Of a stretch of DNA of 64,000 bases, positions 31,957-57,359 are shown in pieces; position 1 is the first letter of the stretch, and every line of letters starts with the position of its first letter. A model generated the notes under the pieces. That model ran no database searches. It was not told the origin of the DNA and saw only the letters and a list, made by a program, of their open reading frames with translations. The DNA is taken from the NCBI GenBank assembly GCA_963846105.1, contig CAWJUT010000001.1, positions 32,292 through 96,291 of the forward strand, in the 5' to 3' direction. Origin of the DNA: an uncultured delta proteobacterium (GTDB lineage Bacteria; Desulfobacterota; Binatia; UTPRO1). The translations under genes and the position numbers were made by a program.

Positions 31957-32360
31957 CCGCCTGGCACGAGCGTGACCGCCACCCTGCGCTCGGCGCGCGG
32001 GCCGTCGAGCTCGACCAGCATGATGCCCTGCCAGGTGCCGAGCACGAGCTCCCCGTCGCGAATCGGAATGGTCTCCGCGGGACCGAGGATCGCCGCCTTG
32101 ATGTGCGCCTGCGCATTGTCGTCCACCCGATCGTGCAGCCAGTTCGCGTGATCGGGAATGGCACGGTCGAGCGCCGTCAGAAGGTCGACGCCGATGTTCG
32201 GATCATCGTTCTCGTTCACGATGATGGCGGCGGTCGCGTGCAGCACCATGACGTGACAGAGTCCGGAGGCCAGTGGCGCCCGGCGGACGATCTGGCGCAC
32301 CTGTTCCGTGATCTCGATGCACTGCTTGCGCTGGTCGCTGCTGATCGTGAAGATCGTCAT
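31953..32360 (-). CDS. yjbQ: YjbQ family protein (UPF0047)
   Basis: HATAAIIVNEN.DP, HD..DDNAQAHIKA, LGTWQGIMLVELDGPR. Confidence 0.92.
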   Translation of the reverse strand: MTIFTISSDQRKQCIEITEQVRQIVRRAPLASGLCHVMVLHATAAIIVNENDDPNIGVDLLTALDRAIPDHANWLHDRVDDNAQAHIKAAILGPAETIPIRDGELVLGTWQGIMLVELDGPRAERRVAVTLVPGG

Positions 32361-44345: not shown

Positions 44346-46154
44346 TCAAGACACGAGCGTCGCTCCCACCCACCCCGGCACGAAGAAGCGTACCGTGGTG
44401 CCGGCGTTCACCTCGCTGGCGATCTCCAGCCGGCCGCCGTGCGCCTGCACGATGTGCTTGACGATGGCGAGGCCGAGGCCGGTGCCGCCGAGCTCACGCG
44501 CGCGCGCCTTGTCGACGCGGTAGAAGCGCTCGGAGAGACGCGGCAGGTCCTCGGCTGGAATGCCGACGCCGGTATCGCGCACCTCGACCTCGACGACCGG
44601 AGTCGCGCCGTTCTCGGCGAGCCGCGCCGCGATGGTCACGTTTCCCCCGGCCGGCGTGTACTTGATCGGCGTTGTCGACCAGGTTGATCAGCACTTGCTG
44701 CAGACGATCGGGGTCGCCGCAGAGCGCCGGGAGATTGGTTGGAAGCGCGTGATCCAGGGTCACCTTGGCGCGCTCGGCCTTCTCCCCGAGCACCTCCACC
44801 AGCTCGCCGACCAGGCGTCCGAGCGGCACGGCTTCGCGCTTGAACGGCGTCTTGCCGAGCTCGAGGTCGGAGAGCGTGAGCAGATCGTCGATCAGGCGGC
44901 CGAGGCGCTCGGAATGGCGTTCGATGACGGCGAGGAACTGGCGTGCCCGGGTGGTGTCGTCGAGCGCGCCCCCGAGCAACGTCTCCGCATAGCCGCGGAT
45001 CGCCGTCAGCGGCGTGCGCAGCTCGTGGCTGACGTTGGCGACGAAGTCGCGCCGCATGGTCTCGAGCCGCTTCAGGTCGCTGACGTCGTGGAAGAACGAG
45101 CACGAAGCCGGCGCTCGCCGTTCCGGTCCCGGCGAGCGGCGACACGCTCACCGCGAGGACACGCCGCTCGGCGTCCGCGAGCGTGATCTCGCGCAGCGCT
45201 GGTCGCACAGCGTCGCGTGCGGTGAGCGCGCGCAGCACTTCGTGCAGCTCCGGGTCCCGGCACATCTCGAGGAGATGGCGGCCCCGATAGTCGGTGCCGC
45301 AGGGCAGTCCGAAGATCGACTGGGCGCGCTCGTTCATCAACACCACACCGCCGTCGCGTCCGACCACCACGACGCCTTCGACCATCGCGCCGAGCACGCC
45401 GCGCAGCTTCTCGCTCTCCTCACGCAGACCGCGAAAGGACTCCTGCAGGCGCTGGCCCATGTCGTTCAGGTTGCCCTCGAGCGCGCCGATCTCATCGGCG
45501 CGCGCAACCGGCAAGCGCGCCGACAGCTCGCCGCCGGCGACGGCGCGCGAGAACCCCACCATACGCTCGAGGCGACGCCCGATGCGATTGGCGACGACCA
45601 AAGCCGGCAGGAGCGCGATCGCGACCGTCGTCAGCACCGTGAGCAACAGCATGGTGACGAGGCGACGATCGGGTCCGGCGACGATGGCGGCCGGGATGGC
45701 GACGCGCACGATCCTCGCCTCCCGCCCTTCGCCGCTGCGAACCGCGGCATAGATGCGCGGCGCGTGCTCGGTCATGCTCTCGCGCCGTGCCACGCCCGTT
45801 CCCGTGCTGAGCGCCGCCGCGACCTCGGGTCGGGTGAGATGGTTCACCATCGTGGCCGCGTCGGCCACGCTGTCACAGAGCACGCGTCCGTCGCTCGTGA
45901 TCACCGTCAGGCGGCTGGTGCTGCCTTGGGTTTCGGCGTGGCAGCGCCGCGCCAGCTCGGCGGGCGCGAGATCGCGTGGGCAGACGCGCCGCGATGGCGC
46001 GGGCATCCTCGAGCGCCGCCGCGCTGACCAGCTCCGTCGCCACCGTGTCGGCGGCGCGCAGCGCCAACCCGTAGCTCGCCAGCAGGAACGGCGGCAGCGC
46101 CACCAGCGACGGCAGGAGCAAGTAGAGGACGAGCTTAGGCGTCGAGCGCGGCAT
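44346..46154 (-). CDS. phoR: Phosphate regulon sensor kinase (HAMP-PAS-HisKA-HATPase; frameshifts)
   Basis: FVANVSHELRTPL, NLVDNA, DTGVGI, RFYRVDKARARELGGTGLGLAIVKH; follows phoB. Confidence 0.93.
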
Positions 46155-46857
46155 CGTTGAACTTGTAGCCGACGCCGCGCACGGTGAGGATCAGCTCCGG
46201 ATGCGTATCGTCGCGCTCGATCTGCATGCGCAGGCGCCGCACGTGCACGTCGACCGTGCGCGGCTCCACGTAGGTGTCGTGCCCCCACACCATGTCGAGG
46301 ATGCGGGCGCGATCGAACACGCGATTGGGGTGGCGGACGAAGAATCCGAGCAGCTCGAACTCGCGGAGACTGAGCGCGACCTTCGCCCCGTCGAGGAAGA
46401 CCTCGTAGGTGTCGAAGTCGACCCGCAAGCGCCCGCGCTCGTAGATCTCGTGCGGGCGCTCGACCTCCGGTCCATGCGCGCGCCTGAGCACCGCCTTCAC
46501 GCGCGCCACCAGCTCGCGCGTGCTGAACGGCTTGGTGACGTAGTCGTCGGCGCCCATCTCGAGACCGACCACCTTGTCGACCTCGGCGGCTCTGGCGGTC
46601 AGCATCAGGATGGGCATGCGCCCGTTCTCCTCGTCACGACGGATGGCGCGGCAGATGTCCAGCCCCGACATCCCGGGCAGCATGATGTCGAGCACGACGA
46701 GCGCCGGGCGCTCGCGACGCACCAGCGTCAGCGCGAGCTCGCCCTCCTCGGCCTCGAGCACCTGGAAGCCCTCCTGCTCGAGGTTGTAGCGCACGAGCTC
46801 GCGGATGTCCTTCTCATCCTCGACGACAAGGACCTTCCGGGTGCGTTCCTGAGACAT
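46135..46857 (-). CDS. phoB: Phosphate regulon response regulator
   Basis: VVEDE, LDIMLP, GADDYVTKPF, RTVDVHVRRLR, TVRGVGY. Confidence 0.93.
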   Translation of the reverse strand: MSQERTRKVLVVEDEKDIRELVRYNLEQEGFQVLEAEEGELALTLVRRERPALVVLDIMLPGMSGLDICRAIRRDEENGRMPILMLTARAAEVDKVVGLEMGADDYVTKPFSTRELVARVKAVLRRAHGPEVERPHEIYERGRLRVDFDTYEVFLDGAKVALSLREFELLGFFVRHPNRVFDRARILDMVWGHDTYVEPRTVDVHVRRLRMQIERDDTHPELILTVRGVGYKFNDAALDA

Positions 46858-46858
46858 G

Positions 46859-47542
46859 TCACACCGTCGGCGGCAGCTCGCCCGCGTGACGGATACTCTT
46901 CCCTTTGACCATGAAGACCACCATCTCGGCGATGTTGGTGGCATGGTCCGCGATCCGCTCCAGGTATTTCGACACGAAGAGGATGCGCATGGAGCGTCCG
47001 ATCGCACGCGGATCCTCGATCATGAACGACAGCAGCTCGCGGAAGATCTGACTGTTGAGCTGGTCGACCTCGTCGTCGCTGCGGCAGACGTCCAAGGCGA
47101 GCTCGGCATCCTCGCGCACGAACGCGTCGAGGCTGCGGCGCAGCATGCCCGACGAGATCTCCGCCATGCGCGGGATGTCGATGTACGGCTTGAGCGGCGG
47201 CTCGCTGGCGAGCTCGATGGCACGCTCGCTGATGCTCACCGCGCGATCGCCGATGCGCTCGAGATCGGTCGTGATCTTGAGCGCGGTGGTGATGAAGCGC
47301 AGGTCGCGCGCCGCGGGTTGCCGGAGCGCCAGCAGGCGCAAGCACAGATCGTCGATCTCGACGTCGAAGGCGTTGACCGCATCGTCCTTCCGAATGGTGT
47401 CCTCGGCGAGCGGCACGTCGCGCGTCGTGAGCGCGCGCACGGCGTTGGCGATCTGCTTCTCGACCAGCCCGCCCATCTCGAGCAGGCGCTGGCGCAACTG
47501 GCCGAGCTCTTCCTCGTACTGTCGATCAGTGTGACTCGCCAT
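46859..47542 (-). CDS. phoU: Phosphate signalling protein PhoU
   Basis: RQPAARDLR, DLERIGD, DDEVD, KYLERIADHATNIAE. Confidence 0.96.
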   Translation of the reverse strand: MASHTDRQYEEELGQLRQRLLEMGGLVEKQIANAVRALTTRDVPLAEDTIRKDDAVNAFDVEIDDLCLRLLALRQPAARDLRFITTALKITTDLERIGDRAVSISERAIELASEPPLKPYIDIPRMAEISSGMLRRSLDAFVREDAELALDVCRSDDEVDQLNSQIFRELLSFMIEDPRAIGRSMRILFVSKYLERIADHATNIAEMVVFMVKGKSIRHAGELPPTV

Positions 47543-47550
47543 GGCTCACC

Positions 47551-48307
47551 TCACCCGAAACGCCCTGTGATGTAGTCCTCTGTCTCCTGCCGGTCGGGCT
47601 TGGTGAACATCTTCTCGGTCGGCGCAAACTCCACCAACCGGCCGAGATACAGGAAGGCCGTGAAGTCGGAGACGCGGGCGGCTTGCTGCATGTTGTGGGT
47701 CACGATCACGATCGTGTAGTCGGTCTTGAGCTCGTGGATCAGCTCCTCGATCTTGGCGGTCGCGATCGGGTCGAGCGCCGAGCACGGCTCATCCATCAAT
47801 AGCACCTCCGGCTCGACCGCGAGCGCGCGGGCGATGCACAGTCGCTGCTGCTGTCCGCCCGAGAGCTCGAGGGCGCTCCCGGTGAGACGGTCGCGCACCT
47901 CGTCCCACAGCGCCGCGCGGCGCAGGCTGCGCTCGACGATCTCGTCGAGACGGCTCACGATCGGTGAGTCCATGCAGGCGCGGCCCGAACGCGACGTTGT
48001 CGAAGATCGACTGTGGAAACGGATTCGGCTTCTGGAACACCATGCCGACGCGACGGCGGAGCTCGACCAGGTCCGTGTCCGGCGCATAGACGTCGAGCTC
48101 GCCGACGCGTATGGCGCCGTGCACGGTCACCTCGGACACCACCTCCGCGATGCGGTTCACGGACTTGATCAAGGTCGACTTGCCGCACCCCGACGGCCCG
48201 ATGATCGCGGTAACGTGGTGCACGGCGAAGTCGACGCTGATGCTGTCGAGCGCCTGCTTCGGTCCGTAGAAGTAGTCGAGGTCGCGTACGGTGACGGCGG
48301 CCGTCAT
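47551..48307 (-). CDS. pstB: Phosphate ABC transporter ATPase (frameshift ~47960)
   Basis: [44 protein letters not shown]. Confidence 0.95.
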
Positions 48308-49231
48308 AGGTGCGCCTGCTCGCGACGGCGGCGAAAGCGGTTGCGGGTGAGAATTGCCGTCAGGTTGAGAAGAAACGTGAGGCTCACCAGCACCAACGTC
48401 GTCCCGTACTGGATCGGACGCGTGAGCTGCGCGTTGGTCGACTGCGTCGCCATGATGAAGATGTGGTACGAGAGCTCCATGAACTGGTCGAGCGGATTGA
48501 TCATCGGGATGCCGAGCACATCGGTGACGGGAAGCCGCGGTAGAAAATAGGCGCAGCCAGTGAACAGGATGGGGGCGGTCTCGCCGGCACCACGGCTGAC
48601 GCTCAGGATCGCTCCGGTGAGAATCCCCGGATAGGCCTGCGGTAGCACGGTGCGCCGTACCACCTGCCATGGGGTGGCGCCGAGCGCGAACGCCGCTTCA
48701 CGGTGGCTGACGGGCACGGCGTTGAGCGCTTCTTCCGTCGAGACGATGACGACCGGCAGCACCAGGATGGCGAGGGTCGCGGCCGCCCACAGCATCGCCG
48801 GCTGGCCGAACAGCAGTCCCGTCGGCCAGCACGCGGTCGATGGAGCGGCCGACGAACAGGATGAAAAACCCGAGGCCGAAGAGACCGAAGACGATCGACG
48901 GCACGCCGGCGAGATTGTTGACGGCGGCGCGAATGATGCGCGGACCGAGTCCCTTGCCCGCGTACTCGACCAGGTAGATCGCCGCCGCCACCCCGAGCGG
49001 CAGCGCCATCAGCACCATGAGGAGCGTGATGCACACCGTCCCGAAGATGGCCGGCCAGATGCCGCCATGGGTCATCCCCTCGGTCGGCGTTCCGGTCAGG
49101 AACTCGACGCTGATGATCCCGATTCCCTGGACGACGATCACGCCCAGGATGCCGAGCAGCACACCGCACGTGACCGCGGTGAGCAGCCGGCACATACCCT
49201 CGCAGATCGCCCCCCACACGCGCGCGCTCAT
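48304..49231 (-). CDS. pstA: Phosphate ABC permease PstA (frameshift ~48830)
   Basis: GGIWPAIFGT, NLAGVPSIVFGLFG, EAAFALGAT.W, SRGAGETAP. Confidence 0.94.
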
Positions 49232-50172
49232 AGACGCAGCCTCCGCCGCATGCGCTCGATGATGATCTCCGCCGCGACGTTGAGCGTGAACGTGATGGTG
49301 AACAGCAGCGAGCCGACCAGGAAGAGCGCCTGGTACTGCTGCCCGCCTTGCGCCACCGCCCCGAGCTCGGCGGCGATGGTCGCGGTCATCGTGCGCACGC
49401 TCGAGAAGACGTCGAGCGTGATCAGTCCGGCGTTGCCCGTCGCCATCAGCACGATCATGGTCTCGCCGAGCGCCCGCCCCATCCCGAGGATGAGCGCGGC
49501 GGAGATTCCCGACACCGCCGCGGGAACCGTGACGCGCGCGATGGTCTGCCAGCGGGTTGCGCCGAGGCCGTAGGAGGCCGCGCGCAGCTCGCTGGGCACC
49601 GCCCGCAGGGCATCCTCCGTGAGCGAGGTGATCACGGGCACGATCACCATCGACACGCCGAGCGCACCCAGAAACGCGTTCAGCCGAAACGTCGTGCCGA
49701 GAGCCTCCTGCAGCAGGGTACCCAGGGAGGCGAGACAGAGAAATCCGATGACGACCGTTGGAATCCCCGCCAGCAGCTCGATGAAGGGCTTCAAGAGCTC
49801 GCGCGTACGCGACGAAGCGAGCTCGGCGAGATACACCCCGCAGCCGACACCGAACAGACCGGCGATGAGCGTGGCGGGCACGGCAACCAGAAAGCTGCCG
49901 CAGAAGAGCGGCAGTAACGAGTACTTCGGATGGTCGCCGACCGGTTGCCAGAGGTGTACCGTCTTCGCGTTGCCGCGATAGTCGGTGACGGTCGTGCCGA
50001 TGAACTCCCCGAGCGGGATGTTGCGGAGCGCCTGGAGGCCCTCCTTGAACAGGAAGAGAAAGATGAGGGCGATGATGAGCACGGCGAGATAGCCGCTCGC
50101 CATGAGCACGAGCTCGATCGCGGACTCGGACGCACTCCGCCTGCGGACGGCGCGGGGCGCCGCCGTCCGCAT
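49228..50172 (-). CDS. pstC: Phosphate ABC permease PstC
   Basis: ELLAGIPTVVIG, ASYGLGATRWQT, GRALGETM, RTMTATIAAE. Confidence 0.95.
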   Translation of the reverse strand: MRTAAPRAVRRRSASESAIELVLMASGYLAVLIIALIFLFLFKEGLQALRNIPLGEFIGTTVTDYRGNAKTVHLWQPVGDHPKYSLLPLFCGSFLVAVPATLIAGLFGVGCGVYLAELASSRTRELLKPFIELLAGIPTVVIGFLCLASLGTLLQEALGTTFRLNAFLGALGVSMVIVPVITSLTEDALRAVPSELRAASYGLGATRWQTIARVTVPAAVSGISAALILGMGRALGETMIVLMATGNAGLITLDVFSSVRTMTATIAAELGAVAQGGQQYQALFLVGSLLFTITFTLNVAAEIIIERMRRRLRL

Positions 50173-50274
50173 CGCTCGGGAAGACTGCGGCGCGGGCGCT
50201 CGCGTCACGACCGCCGCCGACGATTGGGCTCTATCACTCACCCCGACCAGCACTCACAAGACTGGATCCGGGCT

Positions 50275-51166
50275 TCAGTGGGTCGACTTTCCGCCGAGAA
50301 CACCCTTGAGCGGGATGTACTCGATGTCCGCCACCACCTGTTGGCCTTCGGGTCCCATGATCCAGTCGAGGTACGCTTTCTCCTCCGGCGACGGTTTGCC
50401 GGTTGTATACATGAAGAGCCAGCGAGCGATCGGATAGTCGCCGCTCCATACGACCTCGTTGTCCGGTTTTCCATCCTTCAGCGGAGACACCGCCGGGTGA
50501 CGAGTCGGTCTTCTTGATCGACAGCACCCGCAGAGCTGCGATCGGCGCGAAGTATGCGACGCCGCCGTAGCCGATGCCGTTCTTGTCCCGCGACACCGCC
50601 TCCGCCACCGCGCTCGTACCCGGCATGGTCTGGCAATCGGCGGCGTAGTCCCCGTTCTGGAGGACGTGCTCCTTGAAGAACACGTAGGTCCCGCTGTTGG
50701 ACTCGCGGCAGTAGCGAATGATCTTCCCCGCGGTTCCGCCGACCTCACTCCAGTCGTTGATGTCGCCGCGGTAGATCCCATTCACCTGTTGCAAGGTGAG
50801 CTCCTTGACGCCGTTGCTCGAGTGCACGACCACTCCGAGCCCATCGAGCGCCACTTTGTACTCGCCGGGATCGACGCCGTTGGCATTCGCTTTGGCGATT
50901 TCCTCACCCTTGATCGGGCGACTCGAATTGGCGAGGTTCGTGGTCTTGTTGATGAGCGCGGCGATGCCGGTGCCCGAGCCGCCGCCGGTCACCTGGATCG
51001 TCACGGCGGGGTTCTTCTTCATGTAGGTCTCGGCCCAGCGCTGCGCGAGGATCACCATCGTATCCGAGCCCTTGATCGTGATGTTGGCGGCAGTGGCGGG
51101 AGCGGCGCCGATCAGGCCGAGCACCGCCACGCTCACGAAAGCGCGTATCATTGCGTGCGTTCGCAT
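50275..51166 (-). CDS. pstS: Phosphate-binding protein PstS (frameshift ~50490)
   Basis: KGSDTM, GGGSGTG, NSSR, RESNSGTY.FF, YPIAR.LFMYT. Confidence 0.94.
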
Positions 51167-51190: not shown

Positions 51191-52556
51191 CTAGAAAATA
51201 TACTGTACCTGTAGGCGGTACTCCATGTTCTCGCGTGGGCTCGCGCCGCCGCTCACCGATCGTACACCCTCGGTGCGCAGACTGCCGATGTCACTTTGGA
51301 TCTTGAGGTTGTGACCGGCGACGTAGTAGCTGAGCGGCACCACGGATCTCGCGCTGGTCGTTGTGATCGGTGTCGTCGTTGGGCTCGAGCTCCGACCAGC
51401 GAAATGCCACTTCGAACTTCTTCGGAATCAGGAAGTAGCCGGCTTGCGCGTACCAGCCGGTGGCGTTGAACGAGCCCGGATCGGCGCCGAAAGGAGCGTG
51501 CGGTCTCGACACGATTCGCTGTCGATCGCCGCGAAGAAGTACTCGGCGGCGGCGCTGAACCCGAGCCACCGAAAGGCCGCGTCGACACCGAACTGATTGA
51601 AGTTGACACCGACCCGACTCAGGTTCTGGACGTTCCGGAACGACGGCTGCACGGTACGGAGGATCGGCGCCTGCTGCGACACGGTGCCGCCGGCGATGAT
51701 CTTGGTCGCGTCATCGGGATCGAGGCGAGCGGGAGTGCTGATCTCGTCACCCCGCACCTTGTTGTAGACGTAGCTGCCGCCGATGGCGGCCAGCGGTGAG
51801 TCGCTGAAGGTCACGTCCGACTCCTCGTAGGGCATCGGCCCGAAGGGATTGAACGCGACACGCGTCACGGACGCGAGGCTGGTGTCGAAGCTGGCCTTGT
51901 TGCGTCCCGTACCGTTGAACACGCCACTGCCGTACTCGAGCTTGCCGTCGAACTGCGTGCCGTAGAGGATCGCGCCGGGCATGCGCTCGAGACGCATCGC
52001 GTTGGTCGCCAGCGAGCGGTCGACGAATTGCTGGCGTCCCGAGGAGGTCAGCTCCTGGCGCGCGTACATCGTCTTGAACTGTCCGGCGCGTATGCCGATG
52101 TCGTGAATCGGCAGGTAGTCGAGATAGCCATCACGCAGGATGTCGCCACCGCCCCCGACGACGTCGATCTGGGCCATGTAGGTCAACCCCGGCAGCCACA
52201 TGCGACCCTGCAGCCACAGGCGCGCACGTGTGATGTCGATGCTGAGCGAATCCTCGGTCCCTCCCGGTGCGTTGGTGAAGTCGTCGTCGACGTCGAGCAG
52301 CGTCCCGCGGACCTGGAAACGGCCGCCGATGGAGGTCTCGAACCGACCGTCCCCGCTCTGAAACGTGAATCCCTTCCCCTCCTTGTACGAGGCCAGCGCC
52401 CCTGAGCTCTTGGTGGCCTCCTTGAGCTCCTCGTAGCTGATGACTCCCTTGTCCTTGAGAATCTCCTGCAGCTCCCGCGCTTGCGCCCCGCGTGCTCACC
52501 CCTACGGCGAGCAACCCGAGCAGCGCGTACTTCGAAAGCGATCCAAGCCTCCCCAT
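51191..52556 (-). CDS. Phosphate-selective porin, OprO/OprP-like (frameshifts)
   Basis: Signal peptide, ILKDKGVI.YEE linker, beta-barrel with GQFK and SLATN; ends YRLQVQYIF (terminal Phe). Confidence 0.82.
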
Positions 52557-52636
52557 GCTTGTCCCTCCTTCTCGCGTTGTTCCGTTGCGGTTTGGTTGCG
52601 TCTGAAGGATTTCTACGGCACGGGCGTGCCGGCACT

Positions 52637-52664
52637 GTGACGGGGGCGTTACGATTGCGTTACG
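52637..52664 (-). promoter_or_regulatory. Pho box: three 11-bp-period half sites
   Basis: Minus strand cGTAACgcaat cGTAACgcccc cGTCACagtg, ~80 bp upstream of the porin ATG that heads porin-pstSCAB-phoU-phoBR. Confidence 0.75.
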
Positions 52665-52680
52665 CCCTCGGCTGGCCGGG

Positions 52681-54055
52681 TCAGGGGCACACGCCGGACA
52701 GGATGCGACCGCGTCCGGTGTGGGGAATCGCACCACCGTCGAGGCGCTCGACGTCGCGCAGCCCGAGGCACGACAAGAACGTCCGCCCGAGGTCGGCGGC
52801 AGTGATGGTGCCACAGTCGTCGGTCGCACGAGGTCCGTCCCGGACGACGATCACCGGCACACGGGTCTCGCCGGGAGCACCGTGATTGCCCAGCAGCTTG
52901 CCCTCGTCGCCAGCCGTCGCTGAGCACGTTGCCCGGTGCGGCAACCAGCAGGAGGTCGCCGCCGCGGGGGTGAACGAGGTGCCAATCGGCGTGCATCGCC
53001 GCGAGGGTGAAGGCAGCGCCGCCGTCAGCGGCGTTGGGCGTGAGATACAGCGCTTCGGCGATTCCCGGCGTTGCCAGCGCCAGACGCCGGGCGGCGGCGA
53101 GCTGCGCTTCCGACCCCTCGCCCGGCATGGAGCTCCGCAGGTAGACGTGCCCGACGCCGCCATCGCCGACGCTCACGATGTCCGTCAGTCCAGCGTCGGC
53201 CGCCACCGCACCGAAGGCGAGCGCGGGATGGCGGATGGTATCGAAGCCGTGATCAGCGGTGATCACGACCGTGGTGCGCGGCCAGTCGTCACGCTCGCGT
53301 AGGAACGCCAGCAGATCGCGGACCACGGCGTCGCTGGCGCGTCGCGTCTCGGCGGCCGCCGTGGAGTGCGGTCCGGCGCCGTGGCTCACGCGATCGATGT
53401 CGCTGAAATTGACAAGCGTGAACTCGACGTCGGAGGCGAGGAGACTCGCGCACGCCTGCCAGCGTCGCCGTGTCATACGCGTACCCCGTCACCGGGTCGC
53501 GTCCCGCCGTCCGGCGCTTGCGTCGGGCGCCAGAGCACCTGCGGGGCCGCTTGTCCACCCACCGCGTCGAACATCGAGCGCGAGCTTGTCCTTGCCGACC
53601 GCCACCGCGGTCCGGAGCTGCGGGCGCGTGCGCTGCGCCACCGTGAAGAGCGTCTCGGTGAGCAGATCGCGTGCCGCGCCGAGCTTGCGCGGAGGGTTGC
53701 CGGTACGGTCCCAGAACGCGTTGCCGACGATGCCGTGGACCTCGGGATGGACACCGGTCAACAACGTCGCGTGACTCACGTTGGTACGAGCCGGCATCGC
53801 GGCCCGCCCCTCGGCATTCGGGCACCACGGGCTTTCACGCCAAGCCTGCGCCAACGCCGGCGTGTCCGCGTTGCTGACGTCGCGCGCGTCGAGCCCGTCG
53901 ACGACGATCAGGATGAGCCGCTGTCCACCCGGCCGCGGGCCACGCGGCGCCTCACCTTCGGCGCCGAACCCGCTCGATGGTGACTCGACGCCGTACGCAC
54001 ACGCCGTGACCGAGAGGAGAAGGCTCGCGGCGACGGCGGCCGCCCGCCACGTCAC
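52681..54055 (-). CDS. Alkaline-phosphatase-superfamily (nucleotide pyrophosphatase/phosphonate hydrolase-like) lipoprotein; frameshifts
   Basis: Lipobox VTAC; IVVDGL, PARTNVSHATLLTG.HP..HGIVGN (Thr nucleophile), D..SHG.GP, TADHG, GNHG. Confidence 0.85.
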
Positions 54056-54868
54056 CGCGCTTTCGCCATGCCCGGACGCTCCCGTCCGCGCCGCTGAACG
54101 CCGCGCCCGCGTCGCGTCACGGCACGCGCCTCGTTGACCTGTACCCGCGGCCGTTCGTGAAGCTCGCCAGCGAGGTACCGACGGATGGTCTCTCGCAGAT
54201 GCTGTTGGATGGCGTCGATCGATCGGCTGGCGTCCACGGTCACGAACGAGAACTCGTCGACCATCTGGTCGTACTCGCGGATGATCCGCGCCTGGTAGCG
54301 GCGGAAGGAGTCGAAGATGTCGCTGCCCGAGCGCCAGGTGCATGCCGGACTCCCAGTAGTCCATGCCCTTCCCCTCGAGCACGCGCGGGATCAGCCGCTC
54401 GACGTCGATCTTGAGGTAGAGGACCAGGTCGGGCACGACGGCGAAGCCGAAGAGCTTGCGCGTCCAGTCCGGGTCGGCGCCCATGACGGCGTTGCGGGCG
54501 AACGCGGTGTACATGTAGCGGTCGGCGATGCACGATGAAGCCGGCACGCAGCGCCGGGATGATCTGGTTCTCCAGGCGGTCGGCGAAGTCGGCGGCGTAG
54601 AGCAGGCTGAACGTCGTGACGTTCAGCTCGTGGCCCGCCTTGGCCTCGTTGATGGTGTCGGCGAGCAGCGGCGAGCGCGTCCAGCCCGTGTTGACCGACG
54701 CCGTACCCTTGCAGCTCGAGCCAACGCGTCAGCGCGCTCGATCTGCGTCGAGCGCCCGACGCCGTCGGTGCCCTCGATCACGATGAGGCTGCCCGGGAGC
54801 GGCCCGACCTTCAGGTACGGGAGGCCGTGTCCGTAGAAGGACTTATCGGCGTCGTGCATGCGCGGCAT
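54052..54868 (-). CDS. Thymidylate-kinase-like protein 2, atypical P-loop GVGRST (frameshifts)
   Basis: FYGHGLPYL, VIEGTDGVGRSTQ, LLYAADFADRLE, IADRYMYTAFARN, PDLVLYL, DYWESG. Confidence 0.8.
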
Positions 54869-55551
54869 CGCTCCTCGCCGTCGAGGCCCGAGCGTACGCA
54901 GCTCGGCCAGACGGCGCACCTGCTGCTGCTGCTGGTTGATGTCGCCGGTGGCGTCGATCACGCGCAGACCGAACTCGCGCGACCAGCTCGTCGTAGATGT
55001 CCAGCACGCGGCTCTGGAACAGCCGGAAGCTCTCGGCCGGGTCCGCGGCTGAGCCCGACGTCCATGCCGGCCTCGTGGTACTTGAGCTTGGTGCGCCCGG
55101 TGAGGAGGCGCTCAGCGAGACTTCGATCGGCACGCGGAAATAGAGCGCCAGGTCCGGCTTGGGCGCGAAGCTGTAGAGCGCCGCGCACCCACTCGTTGTC
55201 GACGCCGCGCGCGACGTCGCGGCCGAACGCGGTGTAGACGTAGCGGTCGGCGAGCACGATCATGCCGGCCTTGAGCGGCGGGATGATCTTGTAGGTGAGC
55301 CGGTCGGCGAAGTCGACCGCGTGCAGCATGCTGAAGGTCGTCGGGGTGAGCAGGTCCTTCTTCTTCCCGCGCTTCATCGAGCGCCGCACCAGCGCCGACG
55401 AGTTCCACTCGGTGAAGAACACGCTTGCTGCCCTGCGCCAGCAGCCAGCGGTGCGAGCAGCGCGAGCTGCGTCGATCTTGCCCGAGCCGTCGATGCCCTC
55501 GACGATGATCAACTTCCCGGGATACGGATGCGACGCGGTCAATCCTTGCAT
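54869..55551 (-). CDS. Thymidylate-kinase-like protein 1 (frameshifts; 3' end uncertain, possibly fused to the next gene)
   Basis: IIVEGIDGSGK(ST), FTEWNSS, HAVDFADRL, LADRYVYTAFGRD, KYHEAG. Confidence 0.82.
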
Positions 55552-55646
55552 GTCACCTCTCCCCTTCCCTGTCCGTTTCGACCGGAGACGCGCGCCGATG
55601 TCGATCGCCTCGGCTTTCATACGGGGACCTCACTCTATCTCGCACA

Positions 55647-55662
55647 TGTGACAAGAGCCACA
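55647..55662. promoter_or_regulatory. CRP/FNR-family-like box
   Basis: TGTGA-caagag-CCACA, one mismatch to TGTGA-N6-TCACA, in a 125-bp divergent intergenic region. Confidence 0.4.
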
Positions 55663-55676
55663 CGATCAGGTTAGAA

Positions 55677-57359
55677 GTGATGGCGATGCCGTCACCGTGG
55701 GGCGTCCCCGACTGGATCGAGACCCACACCGGTAGCGCGCCGCTCCTCCTGCTCGCACCCCATGGCGGTCGACGTGCGGGCACGCGCCATCCCGGACGTC
55801 ACAAGGTAAACGACCTGCATACCGCGGAGCTGACCCGCGAGCTGGCGGCGGCCTGCGACGCGACATCCGTCGTCAACGGCACGCGTGATCGCAACGAGCT
55901 GGATCTGAACCGCATCAGTCAGGTGTGCGAGCGTGGCCGCTGGCTCCTCGATCTGCTCGCCGACACGCTCGAGGCCATGCTGGCTCGAAGCCCGCGGGCC
56001 ACCGTGGTGGTCATCCACGGCTGGAACGTCGTGCAGCCGGCGTGCGACGTCGGTGCCGGCGTGGTCGTGCACGACGGCCGGTACGTGCCGGCTGCGGAGG
56101 GGCAGCCGACGGCGTCCGACGCGTTCCTCGACGGCACGGTGGGGCTCCTGCGTCGGCTCGCCGAGCCGGCGTCGATCGTGGTCACCATCGGCGCGCGCTA
56201 CCCAGGGGCGCACCGGAACAACCTCCTGCAGCTCTTCACTCCGACACATCGCGACCACAGCGATGCGACGGTGCGCAAGATCGCCGCCCTCGCGCCGCGC
56301 GTCGATGCCGCGCAGCTCGAGCTCGGGATTCCGTTGCGCTGGCCGGGGCCGCGACGGGCGACGTTCGTCGATCTGTTGACGCGCGTGTTCGACGGCCGTC
56401 GCGCCGAGAGCGTCCCCACTCCCGCGACGGAAGGCTCGGCCCTCGCCTGCGGCGGCCACGCCACCGCGCGGCAGGGGATTCAGTTTGCGCAGGACGGCCT
56501 GCTCGGATTCACGAGCATCGACACCGCCGGCGACGGCGGCGTCGCCGGCCGCCTTCTCGTGAGCCCGACCTCCGATGAGCTCGCGCTCTTCACCGGCGAG
56601 CTGGCTGAGCGCGGTGATGGAGCCCTCACGATCCCCGGTCTCGAGTACACCACCACCGATGCGGGCGGCATGCGGGTGCGCTTCGAGGGACCTCTGCTTT
56701 CGTTCCCGACGCTCACACCCTTCCTCGATCTCGAGCACGGGCTGGCGCGCGGACACCTGGTCGAGGCCGCACTCGATCTCTCCTTCACACCCGCGCGCGC
56801 CGAGGCGCCCGCACCCCAGGCGAGGGGCGCGTTCGGCACGCTCCAGGGATGGCTCGCGCTCGACGGCACGCGCCGAACGATCTCGACAGTGGCGCAAGGG
56901 CTCGCGGGTCCGCTCGCGGTTCCCGACCAGCACTTTCCCTTCGCGCGCTTCACGCTCCCCGCCACGCCGCTCGGTCATCTGGCGCTGGTTTCTGAGCACG
57001 CCAGCGACCCGGCCCCCGACCCGGACTCGTCGTCGCTCCGCGCGCGAAGGTTCCAGTTCGCCCTCACCGGCACCGCCTGGCGAAATGACGGGTCACGAAC
57101 CGTCGCCGCCACGTGTGACCTGACACTCACGCCCTCCGGCGGTCAACTGCGGCTCGACGTCGACGCCGCCGGCGAGACTCGTGTCTTCACGGCAGCGCTC
57201 GAGCGCCTCATTCCCGTACGTCGTCCCGGTCGCGCACGCTCCGTCGTCCTGACGGTGTTCGCGCTCTGCGTGCCGAGCGGGGGCCCGGCGGGATGGATCG
57301 AAGTGTCGACGCAGCATCCGGCGGCGCCGTCCGCCGGCCCGCCGCCGCGAGAGTCTTGA
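55677..57359 (+). CDS. Two-domain hypothetical: Zn-peptidase-like (PghP / N-formylglutamate amidohydrolase-type) N-domain + beta-rich C-domain
   Basis: LLLAPHGG, NDLHT, DLNR, VIHGW, AQLELG..LR; uninterrupted 560-codon ORF. Confidence 0.65.
   Translation: MMAMPSPWGVPDWIETHTGSAPLLLLAPHGGRRAGTRHPGRHKVNDLHTAELTRELAAACDATSVVNGTRDRNELDLNRISQVCERGRWLLDLLADTLEAMLARSPRATVVVIHGWNVVQPACDVGAGVVVHDGRYVPAAEGQPTASDAFLDGTVGLLRRLAEPASIVVTIGARYPGAHRNNLLQLFTPTHRDHSDATVRKIAALAPRVDAAQLELGIPLRWPGPRRATFVDLLTRVFDGRRAESVPTPATEGSALACGGHATARQGIQFAQDGLLGFTSIDTAGDGGVAGRLLVSPTSDELALFTGELAERGDGALTIPGLEYTTTDAGGMRVRFEGPLLSFPTLTPFLDLEHGLARGHLVEAALDLSFTPARAEAPAPQARGAFGTLQGWLALDGTRRTISTVAQGLAGPLAVPDQHFPFARFTLPATPLGHLALVSEHASDPAPDPDSSSLRARRFQFALTGTAWRNDGSRTVAATCDLTLTPSGGQLRLDVDAAGETRVFTAALERLIPVRRPGRARSVVLTVFALCVPSGGPAGWIEVSTQHPAAPSAGPPPRES

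Follow-up and report, generated by a model that had tools for sequence, protein, structure and literature searches.

Tandem thymidylate-kinase-like genes ahead of a phosphate gene cluster in an uncultured Binatia bacterium probably encode the two subunits of a family-3 polyphosphate kinase

A 64,000-nucleotide stretch of the genome of an uncultured delta proteobacterium of the Binatia (Desulfobacterota; GenBank assembly GCA_963846105.1, contig CAWJUT010000001.1, forward-strand positions 32,292 to 96,291; hereafter the window, numbered from its first letter) carries on the minus strand, between 55551 and 54052, two adjacent paralogs of the PF02223 (Thymidylate_kin) family, as revealed by translation in three frames and Pfam search. 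Gene 1 (54843..55551) starts at ATG 55551, with an in-frame ATG at 55620 as a less likely alternative; from the former its product begins MQGLTASHPYPGKLIIVEGIDGSGK... and features a P-loop GIDGSGK (55497-55477, extending to GIDGSGKST), a TEWNSS motif (55413-55396), a basic RGKKKDLLTP stretch (55371-55342), ADRYVYT (55251-55231), and a basic lid GRTKLKYHEAGMD (55098-55060). Gene 2 (54052..54859) has the P-loop GTDGVGRST (54772-54746), where arginine, encoded by the CGC codon at 54754-54752, takes the place of the Walker-A lysine, followed by NTGWTRS (54692-54672), ADRYMYT (54526-54506), the lid GKGMDYWESGMH (54373-54338), and an arginine-rich tail whose reading is uncertain past ~54150. Once reconstructed across frames, the products of genes 1 and 2 give Pfam Thymidylate_kin matches of 2e-19 and 5e-23, respectively, whereas the raw open reading frames barely reach the cut-off. 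The first-pass annotation, made from the letters and a list of open reading frames, had described just such a pair, both with DRY, one with GSGKST and one with an arginine-substituted P-loop, and that description is confirmed here; the start it favored for gene 2, ATG 54868, is indeed in frame, but ATG 54859, 9 nt further on, matches all homologs (MHDADKSFYG...) and is better supported. We propose, with considerable confidence, that genes 1 and 2 encode the catalytic (cPPK3) and regulatory (rPPK3) subunits of a bacterial family-3 polyphosphate kinase (PPK3), the activity being assigned by homology.

The pair is followed on the same strand by genes of phosphate acquisition. The stop codon of gene 2 (TGA, 54054-54052) overlaps, as GTGA, the GTG start at 54055 of a type I phosphodiesterase/nucleotide pyrophosphatase (NPP-type) lipoprotein (52681..54055; PF01663, 5e-16 and 2e-17), which contains at least two frameshifts, has a signal peptide with the lipobox ...SVTAC at its end, and is 52-57% identical to its ortholog in a relative (locus L003). 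Beyond it lie a homolog of the phosphate-selective porin O/P (Porin_O_P, 51253..52556; PF07396, 8e-06; beginning with a signal peptide and likewise frameshifted), a phosphate ABC importer block (47551..51166) comprising pstS (51166-50234), pstC (50253-49228), pstA (about 49217-48304), and pstB (about 48307-47551), and a phoU-phoBR block (44364..47542) with phoU (47542-46859), a phoB-type response regulator (46839-46135), and a phoR-type histidine kinase (about 46000-44364). The proposal that the kinase genes are co-oriented and overlap with the phosphatase gene that precedes pst/pho is thus borne out at nucleotide resolution, and a promoter and terminator scan, otherwise uninformative, found no terminators between gene 1, gene 2, and the NPP gene.

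The reference system for such pairs is archaeal. In Sulfolobus acidocaldarius, the genes saci_2019 and saci_2020, annotated as thymidylate kinases and located between ppx and a CHAD gene, form the heteromeric polyphosphate kinase SaPPK3 (Hofmann et al., J Biol Chem 2026, PMC12995831; preprint 2024, bioRxiv 10.1101/2024.08.28.610084), an α2β2 enzyme that works reversibly but favors ATP formation from polyphosphate (polyP) and ADP, with Saci_2019 as the catalytic and Saci_2020 as the regulatory subunit (PMC12995831). The phylogeny presented there already places bacterial pairs of dTMP kinase paralogs near ppx, sixA, CHAD, and pstSC in the PPK3 clade and predicts them to be polyphosphate kinases (PMC12995831). 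PPK3 has therefore been known since 2024-2026, bacterial prediction included, and the pair in the window mostly confirms that published prediction. The likeness is extensive: in both systems the paralogs are adjacent and overlapping, in the order catalytic then regulatory, with a canonical dTMP kinase encoded elsewhere, and the archaeal catalytic subunit shares with gene 1 the GSGKS, TEWNSS, KKKxLLTP, and DRY motifs and the basic lid. The differences are equally clear: Saci_2020 features GKTT and DGY, whereas the regulatory subunit of the window has arginine for the Walker-A lysine together with DRY; the archaeal partners are ppx, CHAD, and sixA rather than the NPP phosphodiesterase and Pho/pst cluster; and the host of the window is a mesophilic bacterium which also carries PPK2.

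Structure-linked and phylogenetic comparisons both point to the PPK3 branch. In searches against the PDB the best match of gene 1 is STK_15430 from Sulfurisphaera tokodaii (2plr/4nzy/4rzx/5h70; 9.4e-57, 195 bits), which is also the best match of gene 2 (2plr; 5.7e-42, 147 bits), whereas true dTMP kinases match either gene at ~1e-12 or worse (about 49 bits). Deposited as a 'probable thymidylate kinase', STK_15430 is now regarded as a cPPK3; it aligns over the whole domain, with P-loop, TEWNSS, KKK, DRY, and lid motifs that match those of gene 1, but it is archaeal and thermophilic, shares about half of the aligned residues, and has a partner regulatory subunit with GSGRTA and DGY. For comparison, the S. 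acidocaldarius operon and pairs from Nitrososphaera, M. sedula, S. tokodaii, and Chthoniobacterales were retrieved. A maximum-likelihood tree of 56 sequences separates the PPK3 clade from canonical thymidylate kinases with 100/100 support; within it, gene 1 joins Saci_2019 and STK_15430 in the catalytic clade (99/90), while gene 2 falls in the regulatory clade, together with Saci_2020 and the regulatory subunit from Nitrososphaera (88/82). The branch of Saci_2020 is very long (6.46), whereas the bacterial regulatory subunits evolve slowly. An AlphaFold2 model of rPPK3 built on a 10-sequence alignment was too poor for a fold search (predicted local distance difference test score 49.9) and was not used; the fold is already fixed by the sequence match to 2plr/5h70.

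At the level of motifs, both genes retain the ATP-binding residues (P-loop glycines, Ser/Thr, and DRY), and in alignments the position of the dTMP-binding REPGG motif is occupied by TEWNSS in gene 1 and by NTGWTRS in gene 2. Canonical dTMP kinases (Tmk; TIGR00041, PF02223) resemble the pair in fold, superfamily, P-loop, and DRY/DRF motif, but differ in carrying REPGG and in forming the separate clade described above. Catalytic subunits from bacteria to Sulfolobales share GSGKS, TEWNSS, (R/K)GKKKxLLTP, DRY, and the basic lid (R.K.K), while the RGKKKxLLTP stretch and the basic lid are absent from every regulatory subunit aligned; judging from this pattern, the basic RGKKK and lid residues probably correspond to the published polyP-cleft residues. 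Neither protein matches PF03976 (PPK2) at E <= 0.1. PPK2 belongs to another branch of P-loop kinases, in which the ADP and polyP sites are swapped, and its class II enzymes resemble PPK3 in being polyP-using P-loop kinases with an active module and an inactive, oligomerizing paralogous one (PMC12995831); the PPK2 genes of this genome lie on other contigs (C23 and C17). The PPK2 family that the first-pass annotation had invoked gives way to PPK3, a branch of the dTMP kinase superfamily; the broader claim made there of a non-housekeeping, heteromeric catalytic-plus-regulatory kinase in phosphate or polyP metabolism is supported by the placement with SaPPK3. Against the TIGR00041 dTMP kinase equivalog model (cut-off 83.25 bits), gene 1 falls below at 75.7 bits and gene 2 above at 91.5, hence the database name 'dTMP kinase'; given this score, annotation pipelines will keep naming rPPK3 that way.

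Gene order in relatives ties the pair to polyP and phosphate metabolism. In a context scan with one genome per species, for which 80 loci were fetched, the catalytic gene lies directly upstream of the regulatory one in all 80; PPX is found upstream in 68 and CHAD and SixA downstream in 55 and 56, respectively. In the 12 loci nearest to the window an NPP phosphodiesterase is found downstream instead, and in most of these PhoBR genes, pst genes, or both come after it; PPX, too, is missing from the six nearest. Homologs more broadly place the tandem pair beside Ppx-GppA, CHAD or CYTH-CHAD, His_Phos_1 (SixA), PPK2, PhoU-pst, and PhoBR, so that linkage to ppx, CHAD, sixA, PPK2, pst, and phoU is present across phyla, in favor of the first-pass annotation, which had suggested a neighborhood analysis for ppx, ppk, CHAD, and pst. 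The partners of the relatives are those of the archaeal sixA-ppx-saci_2019-saci_2020-CHAD operon (saci_2017-2021). The lineage of the window has swapped ppx, CHAD, and sixA for the phosphodiesterase and Pho genes; in its genome ppx and CHAD lie together on contig C23 and sixA on C24.

Within the family of the window, 14 of 18 relatives carry the pair, each of them also with a canonical tmk, whereas in an even sample of the phylum the distribution is patchy (11 of 401 genomes). Gene 2 retrieves thousands of homologs of ~250 aa at 75-90% identity from metagenomes, nearly all named 'dTMP kinase', although bacterial PPK3 members have been called "few" (PMC12995831). Most PPK3 hosts are likewise said to be without PPK1 and PPK2 (PMC12995831), yet PPK1 is present in eight of the 14 pair-bearing family relatives, and the genome of the window, for which no PPK1 match was found, has two PPK2 loci, one intact (C23:10783-11472) and one split over three frames by what appears to be further indel noise (C17:562187-562867, minus strand). 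The idea that PPK3 replaces PPK1 in this lineage is unsupported by these counts and was rejected. As a separate observation, an additional Thymidylate_kin-like paralog stands alone in several relatives (55-62 bits; relatives and contigs G004:C198, G007:C141, G011:C16, G013:C2, G017:C80, and G018:C6), distinct from both the canonical tmk and the PPK3 pair.

Pho control of the operon was addressed with two models of the Pho box: the E. coli consensus (CTGTCAT x3 at 11-bp spacing) and a position weight matrix built from the relatives. Relatives with the NPP-type operon have, 55-140 nt upstream of the first gene, three TGTCAY-like heptamers spaced 11 bp apart, and by the E. coli consensus this repeat is the best-scoring site of the whole 16.7-kb locus in six of 12 loci, tying or ranking just below in two more; such repeats fit Pho control. 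In the window, the intergenic region between the cPPK3 gene and a divergent gene (55552..55676) holds one TTGTCAC half-site, but no clear Pho box of three repeats as in the relatives. Elsewhere in the cluster, upstream of the Porin_O_P gene (52615-52665, minus strand), four to five heptamers of the type CGTAACG/CGTCACA/CGGCACG recur at 11-bp spacing and score borderline against shuffles; the porin-pst-phoU-phoBR genes may thus have a Pho box here. For the window copy of the kinase operon, gene order and the relatives suggest that it too may be under Pho control.

Several points weigh against the PPK3 assignment and what we draw from it. Both genes are frameshifted in the assembly; the two PPK2 loci mean that PPK3 is not the only route between polyP and nucleotides in this genome; and upstream of gene 1 in the window no Pho box scores above shuffles with either the position weight matrix or the E. 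coli consensus. The activity is extrapolated from a single enzyme, an archaeal one, with only about half of the residues identical in the catalytic subunit, as judged by eye from the alignment of gene 1 to its S. tokodaii homolog STK_15430. The loss of the DRX arginine, to which the inactivity of rPPK3 has been attributed (PMC12995831), is not seen in gene 2, which keeps DRY, and rPPK3 is about as conserved as cPPK3 (mean pairwise identity 77.0% vs. 78.5%), more than a passive scaffold seems to need. A related proposal, that rPPK3 is the more conserved of the two, was rejected given these values and the regulatory subunit being ahead in only 23% of genome pairs.

The frameshifts raise two alternatives that hinge on the quality of the assembly. 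Neither gene is an intact open reading frame, and each protein can be read only by hopping between frames, four to seven times per gene, so the pair could be a decayed remnant from which no kinase is made. DNA alignment of the window with four relatives resolves 11 window-specific single-base indels in conserved parts, 10 of them insertions, at about 55480, 55455, 55423, 55182, 55113, 55044, and 54980 in gene 1 (n = 7) and about 54734, 54696, 54531, and 54325 in gene 2 (n = 4), coinciding exactly with the frame hops; the protein between them is 85-89% identical to relatives. Every gene across 44-64 kb is similarly broken, including pstS, pstC, the NPP gene, and cytochromes, and codon-phase changes occur at ~2.0 per kb on all 27 contigs of the assembly, whose estimated completeness is only 62%, vs. 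0.9-1.4 in clean related loci. The damage is not perfectly uniform, since a single frame suffices to read the canonical tmk and likewise one PPK2 copy; on balance, however, the frameshifts appear to reflect the indel noise of a long-read assembly rather than gene decay, and we consider a pseudogene pair very unlikely. The same noise bears on whether the two genes are fused, as the first-pass annotation had allowed, into a single chain of two domains comparable to the two-domain PPK2 of class II. As noted there, no stop interrupts the frame that runs from the gene 1 tail into gene 2, and two protein-collection entries (P0082, 389 aa; P0086, 407 aa) hold catalytic and regulatory parts in one chain; both entries, however, are missing part of a domain at the joint, and natural fusions are a less probable origin for them than mis-assembly or read-through of a frameshift. 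Among 79 resolvable relative loci, gene 1 has its own stop in all 79, overlapping or just before the gene 2 start, and is fused in none. In the ten nearest it is the TAA within GAT-AAG (gene 2 codons 5-6), giving a 17-nt overlap, and the window keeps this ...ARRR-TAA at 54845-54843, one frame off the current tail reading. With a local error rate of ~1 per 140 nt, the 120-nt tail can be expected to hold one more indel, and if one is assumed, TAA 54845-54843 is the probable true stop of gene 1. Given the absence of fused relatives and the same TAA one frame off, the in-frame junction is most likely an indel artifact, and a genuine fusion highly improbable.

That one or both genes instead encode ordinary ATP-dependent (deoxy)nucleoside monophosphate kinases, serving as second or third dTMP kinases for nucleotide salvage that happen to lie near phosphate genes, draws on their shared match to PF02223, on gene 2 exceeding the TIGR00041 cut-off, on the 'dTMP kinase' names that the sources give to homologs, and on the first publication of STK_15430 as an unusual thymidylate kinase. 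The report on that protein, however, measured only ADP formation, and neither Saci_2019 nor Saci_2020 yielded dTDP, whereas Saci_0893 did (PMC12995831). Moreover, the separate canonical tmk that the first-pass annotation had proposed to search for does exist (C25:106783-107337; a full-length match at 156 bits, with a TREPGAT dTMP-binding motif), neither gene of the pair has the dTMP-binding motif, and the operon partners are polyP rather than nucleotide genes. Such a salvage role is therefore extremely improbable, and the two-subunit PPK3 remains the reading we favor.

The regulatory subunit merits separate consideration, as the mark that sets it apart in the window is not the published one. 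DRY is kept in all 80 bacterial regulatory subunits, in seven more divergent ones, and in that of Nitrososphaera; among those examined, DGY occurs only in the three from Sulfolobales. Conversely, the Walker-A lysine is replaced by arginine in every regulatory subunit examined except Saci_2020 (SSGKTT): comparison of the Sulfolobales PPK3 operons (loci L008, L109, and L110) reveals GSGRTA in S. tokodaii and GSGRTY in M. sedula, with arginine as in bacteria, and lysine in Saci_2020 alone. In the sequences examined, the Walker-A Lys-to-Arg replacement, and not loss of the DRX arginine, is thus the near-universal mark of rPPK3, with Saci_2020 as the exception, and the GVGRST P-loop singled out in the first-pass annotation carries this hallmark; no mention of it was found in the main text of the PPK3 paper or of its preprint. 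Since its authors count Nitrososphaeraceae and bacterial pairs as PPK3 (PMC12995831), we treat DRX loss as a Sulfolobales trait rather than a family-defining one. Because rPPK3 keeps DRY, the Walker Ser/Thr, and a near-invariant arginine, and is conserved much like the catalytic subunit, we tentatively raise the possibility, ourselves rather doubtful of it, that the bacterial and thaumarchaeal rPPK3 is a dedicated sensor that binds its ligand, ATP/ADP or the end of a polyP chain, without turning it over and sets the direction of PPK3 by energy charge or phosphate status; if true, the well-studied Saci_2020 would represent a degenerate outlier and not the model for the family.

By homology with SaPPK3, cPPK3 and rPPK3 would assemble into a heteromer, α2β2 in the archaeon. 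In such an assembly cPPK3 would bind ATP or ADP at its intact P-loop, DRY, and basic lid, accommodate polyP along a basic cleft that includes the RGKKK stretch, and reversibly transfer the terminal phosphate between polyP and ADP. With arginine at the Walker-A position and neither basic patch nor basic lid, rPPK3 would be noncatalytic and activate cPPK3 via oligomerization. The continuation of the operon into a secreted phosphodiesterase and porin-pstSCAB-phoU-phoBR would in turn wire polyP turnover to phosphate scavenging and the Pho response. For this particular genome, enzyme activity, subunit stoichiometry, and Pho control are what we infer from these parallels.

Divergent from the PPK3 operon, at 55677-57359 on the plus strand, lies a gene for a 560-aa protein that matches no Pfam family and for which no PDB relative was found. 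With the clean ortholog of locus L022 as the query, orthologs of 40-52% identity were found in the same divergent position in 12 further NPP-type-operon loci; at the N terminus there is a sub-threshold match to FGase (N-formylglutamate amidohydrolase), best in the ortholog of locus L024 (2e-05).

PPK3 has been recognized only recently, and its sole measured member is one archaeal enzyme. A search with just the regulatory subunit brings up thousands of clusters (at 90% identity) from metagenomes of soil and groundwater, all annotated as dTMP kinase, with hosts among the Binatia, metagenome-assembled genomes labeled "delta proteobacterium" or Polyangiaceae, Acidobacteriota, Chloroflexota, and Verrucomicrobiota. 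Beyond the published prediction, what is new here is the lineage-specific operon with the NPP phosphodiesterase and Pho/pst genes, the coexistence of PPK3 with PPK2, and the Lys-to-Arg refinement, which would give a clearer picture of what marks the regulatory subunit. Recognizing such pairs corrects a systematic mis-annotation and, if the assignment holds, would mean that abundant soil bacteria not yet cultured have one more polyP enzyme in their phosphate economy.

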